From Candidatus Hadarchaeum sp. (GTDB lineage: Archaea > Hadarchaeota > Hadarchaeia > Hadarchaeales > Hadarchaeaceae): a stretch of 21,337 bases of DNA. The stretch is taken from the NCBI RefSeq assembly GCF_049969415.1, contig NZ_JBMFOX010000021.1:1-21337 (forward strand). Reading direction: 5' to 3'. The notes under the pieces were generated by a model, which saw nothing but the letters and a program-made list of their open reading frames with translations, was not told where the DNA came from and searched no databases. A program made the translations under genes and the position numbers. This document shows, one piece after another, positions 18,387 to 21,337 of this stretch (positions are counted from its first letter, which is position 1; the number at the start of each line of letters is the position of its first letter).

Positions 18387-19574
18387 ATGTATCTGACGAA
18401 GGAACAGGAGCGCATGCTCGCCGGCGAGAAGGGTGAAGTCGTCGAGCGCATGTTTCGGTTGCTGGTCCGACTGGGTGAGGTCTACGGCGCGGACCGCATG
18501 ATTCCTGTGGCCTCGGCGCAGGTCGCCGGCGTTTCCTACAAGTCAATCGGTGACCCTGGCCTCGAGTTCCTTGAGGACATCGCCGCCCAGGGGGCACGGG
18601 TAGGGGTACCCACGACGCTGAACCCTCCCGGGATGGACCTTGTTGATTGGAAGGAGCTGGGCTTTCCCGAGGATTTCGCCCAAAAGCAGCTGAGGATCAT
18701 GGAGGCTTTTAGGAAAATGGGGGTCCTGATGACCGCGACCTGTACTCCCTACCTAGTCGGAAATTTACCGCGTTTTGGCGAGCACCTTGCTTGGTCCGAG
18801 TCCTCGGCGGTTTCCTTTGCCAACTCCGTCATCGGCGCCCGGACGAACCGGGAGGGCGGTCCCTCGGCGCTCGCGGCGGCCATCTGCGGCCTCACGCCCA
18901 ACTACGGACTACACCTCGACGAAAACAGAAAGCCCCACTACTTGATTGAGGTCAAGGCCGAACTGAGGAGCACCTCGGACTTCGGCGCGCTGGGATATTA
19001 CGTGGGAAAAATAGTCAAGGACAAGGTTCCCTATTTCCGGGGGATTAAGGAGGCCGATGTGGACCAGCTCAAGGCGCTCGGGGCGGCGATGGCGGCGTCG
19101 GGGGCGGTGGCGCTCTACCACGTTGAGGGAATCACACCAGAGGCCAAGCTGATGGATGTTTCCAGTCTGGAGAGAATCGGGGTCGGTGAACAGGAGCTCC
19201 GGGAGGCCCACGAAAAGCTGAACACCGGGGTCGACCCCGATATCGTGATTCTGGGTTGCCCGCACGCCTCGCTCAAGGAGATCGCCACGCTCGCAGCCAA
19301 GCTGGACGGGAAAAGGCTCAAGAAGCCGCTCTGGATCTGCACCTCGCGCATGACCAAGGAAGCGGCGACCAGAATGGGGCTAACGGCTGCGATAGAGGGG
19401 GCTGGCGGCAGGGTGGTTGCCGACACCTGCACCGTGGTGTCACCGATTGAGCGGATGGGTTACAGGACCATAGGGGTTGATTCCGGAAAGGCGGCGAACT
19501 ACCTGCCCGGGTTCTGCAAGCAGCAGGTGGTCTTCAGGAGCCTCGATGAATTGCTCGAGGAGCTGGTGGTGTGA
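18387..19574 (+). CDS. Aconitase X catalytic subunit, probable phosphomevalonate dehydratase large subunit
   Basis: TTLNP, TCTPY, AWSESSAVSFANSVIGARTNRE, GCPHAS, DTC (Fe-S Cys ligands). Confidence 0.92.
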   Translation: MYLTKEQERMLAGEKGEVVERMFRLLVRLGEVYGADRMIPVASAQVAGVSYKSIGDPGLEFLEDIAAQGARVGVPTTLNPPGMDLVDWKELGFPEDFAQKQLRIMEAFRKMGVLMTATCTPYLVGNLPRFGEHLAWSESSAVSFANSVIGARTNREGGPSALAAAICGLTPNYGLHLDENRKPHYLIEVKAELRSTSDFGALGYYVGKIVKDKVPYFRGIKEADVDQLKALGAAMAASGAVALYHVEGITPEAKLMDVSSLERIGVGEQELREAHEKLNTGVDPDIVILGCPHASLKEIATLAAKLDGKRLKKPLWICTSRMTKEAATRMGLTAAIEGAGGRVVADTCTVVSPIERMGYRTIGVDSGKAANYLPGFCKQQVVFRSLDELLEELVV

Positions 19575-19966
19575 AGGGGAGGACGATCAGCCCGGGAAAG
19601 GCCAGCGGCGCGGCGCTGGTTTCAAGGTCCCCGCTCAGCTTCTACGGCGGCGTCGACCCCAAGACGGGAATCGTCATTGAGAAAGGGCATGAGCTCGAGG
19701 GCGAGTGCGTCAAGGGACGGGTTCTGGTCTTCCCCCAGGGAAAGGGCTCCACGGTTGGCTCCTACGTCATCTACGGGCTGAAGAAGAATGGCGTGGCCCC
19801 CGCGGCCATTGTGAACCAGGAGACCGAGACCATCGTGGCCACCGGCGTCATCCTAGCCGGGATACCCTGCGTGGACAAAATTGACATCGGGAAGATTAAG
19901 ACCGGGGACAAAGTGGTGGTCGACGCCGACAACGGGACAGTGGAGATAGTCCAAGAAATCACCTGA
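19571..19966 (+). CDS. Aconitase X swivel subunit, probable phosphomevalonate dehydratase small subunit
   Basis: [21 protein letters not shown]; GTGA overlap with the large subunit. Confidence 0.92.
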
Positions 19967-21337
19967 TTTTCGTGGATAGCCTCTCCAACAGCAAACCGAT
20001 CGCGATCACCAAGAAGACAAGAATCAGGCCGGGAATTATGATTAATTCTACAGGTATGGGTGGAACTTCAGGCGCCAGGGTGGGTTGGGGCACCGAAGGA
20101 GTGGGTTTTGGTTTTGGGGTTGGTGTCGGCGTGGGCGTCGGGGTTGGCGTTGGAGTCGGTGTTGGGGTAGGAGTCGGCGTCGGGGTTGGCGTTGGTGTGG
20201 GCTGGGGTGGCGCAGCGGTTGAGGCAGAGCTCCCAAAAATGCCAAACAACGTCAGGTGGTTGACCCATCCCGAAACGGTGTTGTTGACCGTATCCACGGC
20301 GATGTTGTCGCACTGGTGCCAAGCGTTGTCCGTCGAGCTCCACCAGTAGATCTTCAGCGAGCTTTCATCAATTCCGGCCACGTCTTCATCGGTGTAGTGG
20401 AAGATGAGGCGTAAGTTTTCTGCTAGGTTCTCAGAGGTGCTGATGTCCACAAACAACCCGGCTTGGAGCAGGCTTTCGGGAAAGGCGATTTCGGAGAGCA
20501 CCGTTATCACCGTTATCGAGACCTCCCCGGCTTTGGCGGCATCCAAGGTGATGTCGGCCACCCCCGGCAGGCTGACGGCGTTGGTCCCTTGCGCCACGGT
20601 TTTGGAGGTCTGTTTCGAGACTGTGTTCTCAAAGAGCGCGGTGAGCCAAGGTGTGTAGCTCACGTTTGCGCTGACGTTGTCTCCCGTGCCGGGGCCAACT
20701 CCACCCGGGCCGTTGGGGTGGCCCCACCAGTTGTACCTGGCGTTGAGCTCCCCGTCACCACCGTTGTAGATCCCGTAGTTCCCGGCCTTGGTTGAGTTGC
20801 CGACGATGTTGTTATTGTTCACGGTTATTCCCGTGCTGTTAACTCCAGCCTCAACGTGAATCCCGGAGCCCACCGCCGTGTTGTTTGTGATGCGGTTGAA
20901 GCGGATGACCGCAAATGAGGTGCTCCCCTCGATATATATTCCGTGGGCATTGTTGTCGATGTAGTTATTCTCGATGAAGTTCCTGTAAGAATTGTTCAGA
21001 TAGATGCCGTAGCTGGAACTGCCACTGCATGTGTTTTTGCGGATGGTCGTGTTTTCAAATCTTTGTATGTAGATTCCGTAGTAGTTGTTCTCGCAGGTGT
21101 TGCTGTCTAAGATATTGTAGTCGGACGAGGACAAGTAGATCCCGTAGCCCACGGAGTACCCCCACTGGTAAGAGCAGTTGTTGTTGGAGATGGTGTTGTT
21201 GGACGAGGACTCTAGGTAAATGCCCCAAGAATTCCACATGCAAGTGTTGTTGTCTAGGGTGTTGTAGGACGAGGAGGACAGATAAATCCCAGTGCCATCT
21301 CCATCGTAGTTGCTCTCGCAGGTGTTTTTGCTCATTG
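19959..21337 (-). CDS. Cell-surface protein (5' truncated): parallel beta-helix (NosD/PbH1-like) repeats, beta-sandwich ending in HLT motif, PT linker, C-terminal TM anchor
   Basis: Repeats like GIYLxSSxxNxxxNNxC; ARYNWWG cap; WVNHLTLF; (PT)14; hydrophobic tail followed by ERLSTKIR. Confidence 0.85.
20118..20201 (-). repeat. Coding (Pro-Thr)14 low-complexity repeat
   Basis: 84 bp of alternating CCN/ACN codons, with a 20-bp exact duplication (20134-20153 = 20176-20195). Confidence 0.9.

Follow-up and report, generated by a model that had tools for sequence, protein, structure and literature searches.

The locus considered here raises the question of whether an archaeal surface protein carries a self-cleaving module of the kind found in GAIN and ZU5 domains, by which its extracellular head could be held on the cell non-covalently. 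The window, that is, the whole stretch of DNA that was analysed, is an entire contig (NZ_JBMFOX010000021.1, 21,337 nucleotides) of Candidatus Hadarchaeum sp., one of 138 in a 1.47-Mb assembly with an estimated completeness of 95% and contamination of 2%. The 3′ part of a surface-protein gene (19959..21335, minus strand, 458 codons and a stop, from the list of open reading frames and their translation) runs off the end of this contig, where its 5′ part is lost. Within it, a beta-sandwich domain with the triplet H360-L361-T362 stands between a beta-helix and a membrane anchor. The initial annotation, a guess from the raw sequence, proves largely right, in that the gene encodes an archaeal surface protein with a GAIN/ZU5-type module whose cleavage is predicted. 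The domain very probably belongs to the ZU5/GPS(GAIN_B)/MAIN superfamily, and the probability that it cleaves between L361 and T362 is put at roughly 70%. Self-cleavage is regarded as most likely because the GAIN/ZU5 fold, the placement of HLT before the last strand, an invariant histidine and a conserved serine or threonine occur together.

The MAIN-like (GAIN_B/ZU5-fold) domain covers residues 228–372 (145 residues; 20220..20654, minus strand), as delimited with an AlphaFold2 (AF2) model, Foldseek, VIA-align and homologues. A beta domain in front of the stalk had been expected at about 120 residues; the all-beta domain is present, but it is larger, at around 145 residues with 11 strands. The AF2 model, made from an alignment of 32 sequences, has a predicted local distance difference test score (pLDDT) of 92.0 and a predicted template modelling score (pTM) of 0.84, and apart from short turns its eleven strands make up the whole fold. 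H360-L361-T362, the predicted catalytic triplet (20250..20258, minus strand), is identified from sequence, conservation and its loop position in the model. Translation and base reading reproduce exactly the peptide and the HLT codons 20258–20250 quoted initially (H 20258–20256, L 20255–20253, T 20252–20250). In the AF2 model and its DSSP assignment, N-H-L-T makes up domain residues 132–135, in the loop between strands 126–131 and 136–141, directly before the last strand. The scissile bond predicted from the motif, L361|T362, would lie between bases 20253 and 20252 of the minus strand, and the last strand, TLFGIFG (residues 362–368; 20232..20252, minus strand), is assigned by DSSP at domain residues 136–141.

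An unrelated fold had been named at the outset as one finding that would speak against the proposal. GAIN and ZU5 structures came out on top in both Foldseek and VIA-align; the fold is therefore of the GAIN_B/ZU5 type and not an unrelated one. The best-ranked Foldseek matches in the PDB were the GAIN domain of CD97 (E 1.4e-4), the GAIN domain of BAI3, the FIIND of NLRP1 and ankyrin ZU5. By VIA-align, the highest score was obtained with the ZU5 domain of ankyrin-B (4d8o, Z 11.4, root-mean-square deviation (rmsd) 3.1 over 126 residues), followed within that group by 3ud2, 3ud1 and 3f59 (Z 11.2 and 11.0), the four structures giving rmsd values of 2.5–3.1 over 121–126 residues. GAIN domains scored in the same range, with CD97 at Z 11.2 (rmsd 3.7, 133 residues), BAI3 at 10.9, BAI2 at 10.0, CELSR1 at 8.8 and latrophilin (4dlq) at 7.3, and the FIINDs of NLRP1 and CARD8 gave 9.3 and 7.9–8.2, respectively. 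GAIN_B and ZU5 are thus tied by structural score. An independent scan, without Foldseek, of 48,161 representative chains agreed, as all 11 chains with Z ≥ 8 were GAIN, ZU5/FIIND-type or axonemal doublet-microtubule chains.

Sequence comparison adds conservation to this picture. The domain as a single sequence found no match among PDB sequences at E ≤ 10, and no model in Pfam or NCBIfam covers it, either in the protein here or in 76 homologues. A profile of 32 relatives matched ADGRF1 only among PDB sequences, at a non-significant E of 0.5, with HLs placed on HLT and SFSIL following, so that TLFGIFG is aligned with TSFSIL. One of these 32 relatives reaches the Pfam GPS model (PF01825; E 0.0037). 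An exhaustive HMMER scan of 1.84 billion representative proteins gave 1151 relatives of the domain at E ≤ 1e-3 and 47 at E ≤ 1e-10. A tripeptide of the H-L/F-S/T type is common on its own (12 sites by a loose regular expression in the open reading frames of at least 200 residues in this genome), and the site stands above chance because it is conserved among relatives. In the 32-sequence alignment, with a mean column identity of 32%, only two residues are invariant, one of them His360, and the position two residues on is serine or threonine in every sequence. The "W...W...C" pattern recognised initially is kept in part: the tryptophan of "AWHQ" is nearly invariant, but the cysteine, which is the only one in the domain, occurs in just 11 of the 32.

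The triplet itself was counted in 227 domain copies from the 150 best representatives. H-[LFI]-[ST] is present in 169 of these (HLS 53, HLT 43, HFS 36, HFT 34 and HIT 3), and a further 18 are cut off at this point. The expectation that prokaryotic relatives usually read HFS is not borne out by these numbers. HLT was also considered as a eukaryote-like variant with a bearing on the origin of GAIN domains, an idea that was rejected, with HL[ST] found in 96 relatives' copies and HF[ST] in 70; on these counts, HLT is ordinary in this branch. Moreover, a bacterial threonine nucleophile was already mutated (T770A) among the constructs of a recent preprint, discussed below.

Only two close orthologous loci were found among species-representative genomes with the single domain as query, and both belong to Candidatus Hadarchaeum, with 84 and 71% identity over the domain. 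At both, the gene is flanked, as it is here, by genes for an aconitase-X-like protein, DnaJ and DnaK. The peptide WVNHLTLFG, the linker and the transmembrane (TM) helix are kept in three Hadarchaeum-type orthologues. The orthologue at locus L007 is complete; its open frame, of 1112 codons (L007:1340-4678), is 71% identical to the part present here. About 830 residues of beta-helix repeats precede the same domain, linker and helix in it, and matches to this assembly are confined to the last 480 residues or so. That the gene encodes an archaeal surface protein, as first supposed, is correct because the assembly holds archaeal small-subunit (SSU) and large-subunit (LSU) rRNA, the closest loci are from Candidatus Hadarchaeum, and the gene neighbours are the same.

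Four archaeal SSU rRNA matches were obtained in the assembly, on contigs C19, C41, C62 and C69 (L002-L005), with 1505, 977, 912 and 432 bits, two of them beside fragments of LSU rRNA. Despite the contamination estimate of 2%, rRNA from more than one archaeon may be present in the bin.

Domains of this kind are already known, having been predicted in 2012 and demonstrated for bacteria in 2026, in a preprint whose available text also reports archaeal members. The caution given initially, that GAIN-like domains of microbes might be in the literature already, was well placed. Zhang et al. (2012; PMC3482391) defined a ZU5 superfamily that includes the GPS and Nup98 domains, noted related ZU5 domains within large surface proteins of bacteria, alongside modules for adhesion and enzymatic activity, and suggested autoproteolytic processing of these proteins. 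Starting from the latrophilin GAIN structure, Brogan and Rudner (bioRxiv 10.64898/2026.05.12.724683, May 2026) described bacterial and archaeal "MAIN" (Microbial Autoproteolysis INducing) domains. According to the preprint text available, the prototype, YfkN of B. subtilis, is cleaved at HF|S as determined by Edman sequencing; the S1346A substitution abolishes cleavage and a serine-to-threonine exchange restores it, the fragments co-purify and co-elute, and several further bacterial MAIN domains cleave as well. The YfkN ectodomain is freed by sodium dodecyl sulphate (SDS) or heat only if cleavage is possible, and release of adhesins, enzymes and toxins by shear is put forward there as a hypothesis. 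The T770A construct, from Gracilibacillus, represents a natural threonine nucleophile, and most MAIN proteins are stated to carry sortase signals, wall-binding or SLH domains (Brogan and Rudner, 2026). A literature search from 2020 onwards, by family name and YfkN, returned no further paper on the MAIN domain. In the same available portion of the preprint text there is no mention of PGF, archaeosortase or "tandem", whilst its Tables S2 and S3 may already list Hadarchaeum or PGF-pre-PGF proteins.

By analogy with these systems, the domain would be exported and folded, and His360 would activate the hydroxyl of Thr362, which would attack the carbonyl of Leu361 in an N-to-O acyl shift, the resulting ester then being hydrolysed. 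The products would be a large N-terminal piece, comprising the beta-helix head with ten of the sandwich strands, and a small C-terminal one, which begins with TLFGIFG and runs on through the Pro/Thr linker, the TM helix and the tail. The two fragments would presumably remain associated after cleavage. The new N-terminal strand would stay hydrogen-bonded in the sandwich as the only link between head and stalk, so that the head would remain non-covalently on the cell, to be shed once the strand is pulled out. Mechanical force as the natural trigger of such release is speculative and seems doubtful. The label "adhesin" given to the protein initially is an unproven guess, as the head is a beta-helix of the NosD type, which may be that of an adhesin or of a polysaccharide-active enzyme.

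With regard to what cleavage would be for, it may instead be a constitutive step of maturation or release that is not gated by force, either as steady shedding of a beta-helix enzyme or as processing during envelope assembly. This is rather unlikely, yet it draws on the preprint itself, in whose available text YfkN is released only by SDS or heat, conditions termed non-physiological, and force-dependence is a proposal. Additionally, nothing in the sequence here bears on the trigger. The bacterial fragments tested did, however, remain associated through purification and gel filtration (in the available text), which makes spontaneous release less likely.

A second alternative is that the domain does not cleave at all, and is a spacer or binding module with a ZU5/GAIN_B fold in which H-x-S/T would serve structure or ligand binding and the head would keep a permanent covalent link to its anchor. 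Several observations weigh on this side and against self-cleavage. The ZU5 domains of ankyrin reach the same scores as GAIN domains here and include the top match (Z 11.4 to 10.8) but are not reported to be self-cleaving, and an uncleaved state of BAI2 is named in the title of PDB entry 8oek, so the fold alone is no proof of cleavage. Forty of the 227 related copies read otherwise than H-[LFI]-[ST], and some versions of the scaffold are therefore probably uncleaved; together with the 18 of 32 copies from the same phylum that are without the histidine, they make it clear that the scaffold is used without the canonical triad. The domain alone matches no Pfam family at E ≤ 10, including GPS, GAIN and ZU5. 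Its likeness to the MAIN domain of YfkN is one of fold, motif and architecture, and the MAIN domains assayed are bacterial, with no archaeal member among them in the available preprint text. As for export, the protein here is truncated at its N-terminus and the signal-peptide region is absent, and at L007 a signal-peptide-like stretch (…LLIPYLGTICLFTLLILTFLPKSQAQ…; L007:1279-1419) lies in another frame, just upstream of and overlapping the start of the 1112-codon frame; the 5′ end of that locus looks like a frameshift or an assembly error. Despite these points a non-cleaving spacer is judged unlikely, as structure alone hardly explains an invariant histidine and a serine or threonine two residues later at 32% mean identity, and tested microbial domains with the motif were cleaved in nearly all cases (Brogan and Rudner, 2026, in the text available). 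A carbohydrate-binding or glycosidase-accessory beta-sandwich with a fortuitous HLT can be set aside as very improbable, for although C-terminal sandwiches, among them those of GH66 dextranases and GH98 enzymes, make up the lower structural ranks (Z 5.3–7.4) and many relatives have carbohydrate-related partners such as CBM96 and Glucodextran_B, such accessory sandwiches trail in the 48,161-chain scan (Z ≤ 7.4, with fewer residues aligned), stand 3–4 Z units under GAIN/ZU5 with some 95–100 residues aligned against 125–139, and leave the conserved motif unexplained.

Whilst autoproteolysis at L361|T362 thus stays the favoured reading for the protein here, domains of the same family in its phylum are more varied. 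The domain profile matches 23 of 66 genomes of the host phylum at E ≤ 1e-5, and 8 of its 26 high-quality genomes. From this phylum 33 matched regions were taken (loci L015-L047 among them), 32 of which gave a domain match. Twelve of these copies have H-[LF]-[ST], 18 have [LF]-S preceded by glycine, serine, lysine or glutamine in place of histidine (typically "PGFS" or "PGLS"), and two have neither. Eight copies were compared with NCBIfam, and six of them, five His-less and one with HLS (L030), match the PGF-pre-PGF model TIGR04213 (1.7e-23 to 2.1e-30); two histidine-bearing copies gave no NCBIfam match, and the protein here gave no match to TIGR04213 (28-bit cut-off) at E ≤ 1. In an alignment of 15 PGF-pre-PGF-type copies the serine is kept in all 15, and the histidine is mostly glycine ("PGFS").

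Comparison of this alignment by hhalign with the family of the domain in the window gave a match over 130 columns (98.7%, E 4.1e-16), placing H-L-S on G-[FL]-S, and the AF2 model of PGF-pre-PGF (pLDDT 92.9) again retrieved the ZU5/GAIN set (Z 8.6–9.5). From the profile match and the shared fold it follows that the curated PGF-pre-PGF domain of archaea (TIGR04213) is related to the MAIN/GAIN_B domain and has mostly lost the histidine. In the literature its name turned up in two papers, once in each. A wider view, in which MAIN-type modules would be a general archaeal device for holding extracellular heads and His-less PGF-pre-PGF domains would still self-cleave at [FL]|S, as FIIND does at SF|S, is distinctly improbable; if it were true, the "PGF" motif that gives the domain its name would really be the cleavage site.

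The relatives found in the large scan give some indication of how the domain is used. Chloroflexota, Thermoplasmatales and Elusimicrobiota are the sources of the relatives that have names, not one of which is annotated as GAIN or MAIN or goes under the name YfkN. In 76 relatives the accompanying domains include NosD/Beta_helix, Ig-like, CARDB, PKD, fn3, cadherin-like, Glucodextran_B, CBM96, dockerin and cohesin domains, and PF27332 is listed for three relatives. Two to five MAIN-like domains in tandem are present in 80 of 191 relatives, often with HLS in one copy and HF[ST] in the next. After the last copy there is exactly one hydrophobic segment in 123 of the 191 and none in 66 (many of these being fragments), at a median distance of 122 residues from the domain. 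No LPXTG motif was found near the C-terminus in any of 150 relatives. The ESM Atlas returned archaeal clusters and a ZU5 cluster at 0.85, which is taken as a lead only.

A different architecture was seen in a metagenomic protein of 677 residues (P0124), in which a MAIN-like domain with N-L-T for H-L-T is followed by around seven hydrophobic segments, which amounts to a GAIN-plus-polytopic-membrane architecture. For its membrane portion, DUF5345 (E 0.25) is the only Pfam match at E ≤ 1.

The remaining parts of the protein follow the order claimed initially, namely beta-helix, beta domain, linker and TM anchor, which is borne out by Pfam, the sequence and hydropathy. Residues 1–225 (20661..21335, minus strand) are the end of a right-handed parallel beta-helix with PbH1/NosD-like repeats, including an NWWG...PWL cap, and match Beta_helix (4.9e-26) and NosD (7.1e-24) of Pfam over residues 8–195, as well as the para_beta_helix repeat of NCBIfam (1.2e-25). 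The domain is followed by a Pro/Thr-rich linker of some 58 residues, including (TP)n (residues 373–430; 20046..20219, minus strand), for which Pfam and NCBIfam gave low-complexity matches only, such as Trypan_PARP at E 0.019, below the cut-off. A hydropathy scan found one hydrophobic segment, a C-terminal TM helix (residues 431–450; 19986..20045, minus strand) that is conserved in the orthologues L007 and L008, and the protein ends with a short basic tail of eight residues, ERLSTKIR, before the stop codon (19959..19985, minus strand). Of the order signal peptide, ectodomain, MAIN domain and anchor, the beta-helix ectodomain, the domain and the TM anchor are therefore present in this contig, and the N-terminus lies beyond its end; a tblastn search of the assembly with the full orthologue located no missing 5′ part on other contigs.

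Neither PGF-CTERM nor any other NCBIfam model, sorting signals included, was matched in the last 58 residues at E ≤ 10. An exosortase or archaeosortase (PF09721) was not found in this 95%-complete genome either, but the search was insensitive, and its null result says little because the control was positive in just 1 of 14 reference genomes. The sole other copy of the domain in the genome is a fragment on the plus strand of contig C129 (769 bp), in a frame of 96 residues with an HFS-type motif and a different tail, and may come from another organism in the bin. On the plus strand of the window, an aconitase-X-like gene pair (18387-19966; 395 and 131 residues) adjoins the DnaJ and DnaK genes, and its 3′ end converges on the surface-protein gene with an overlap of 8 bases.

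What the locus adds to earlier work is a concrete Hadarchaeum-type example, in which a Pro/Thr linker and a TM anchor take the place of a wall anchor. The survey of relatives adds that HL[ST] occurs no less often than HF[ST] in an archaeal, Chloroflexota-rich branch where tandem copies are frequent, and that there is a tie to the PGF-pre-PGF domain at the level of both profile and fold. If archaeal members do cleave, they would offer a simple membrane-anchored, wall-free system for studies of force-dependent shedding.

Among the systems with which the domain can be compared, the SEA and SEAL domains of mucins and of clostridial RsgI anti-sigma factors resemble it in that they cut themselves at a beta-sheet turn and non-covalent contacts keep the fragments together beside a membrane anchor. 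Their fold and motif are different, however, and they are therefore analogues and not relatives.

ZU5 domains (ankyrin, UNC5 and PIDD, as well as the NLRP1 and CARD8 FIIND) provide the best structural score, at Z 11.4 with ankyrin-B. The protein here nevertheless has no match to PF00791 (E ≤ 1 with the protein, E ≤ 10 with the domain), eukaryotic ZU5 domains are cytoplasmic, and FIIND differs in cleaving at SF|S with no adjacent histidine.

The GPS of adhesion G-protein-coupled receptors and polycystins carries paired cysteines. With GAIN domains (CD97, 9mqr; BAI3, 4dlo; ADGRF1) the domain shares the fold of subdomain B (Z 10–11.2), an HL|T triplet at the same turn and a following hydrophobic strand, LFGIFG here, that is equivalent to the tethered-agonist strand, in addition to the in-register alignment with HLT-SFSIL of ADGRF1, which at E 0.5 is weak and not significant. 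It differs in having no helical subdomain A, as the beta-helix extends up to about residue 225 and is followed by the all-beta domain, in having a single cysteine and not a pair, with no match to the Pfam GPS (PF01825) or GAIN models, and in being followed by one TM helix and an eight-residue tail where the receptors and polycystins have 7 or 11 TM helices.

The PGF-pre-PGF domain is homologous, has the same fold and is likewise placed just before a C-terminal anchor, but its histidine is mostly replaced by glycine and the protein here falls outside the TIGR04213 model. In overall design the domain resembles MAIN domains, which share the GAIN_B-like sandwich with H-X-(S/T) in the turn that leads into the last strand (H360-L361-T362 here), the position between a large ectodomain and a cell-surface anchor, and the same types of partner as seen in the relatives here (beta-helix, Ig-like, cadherin-like, fn3 and dockerin). 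A threonine nucleophile is also known among them, going by the T770A construct in the available text of the preprint (Brogan and Rudner, 2026). The protein of the window is set apart from them by its archaeal host and by its anchor, which consists of a Pro/Thr linker and a single TM helix in place of a sortase signal, SLH or wall-binding domain.

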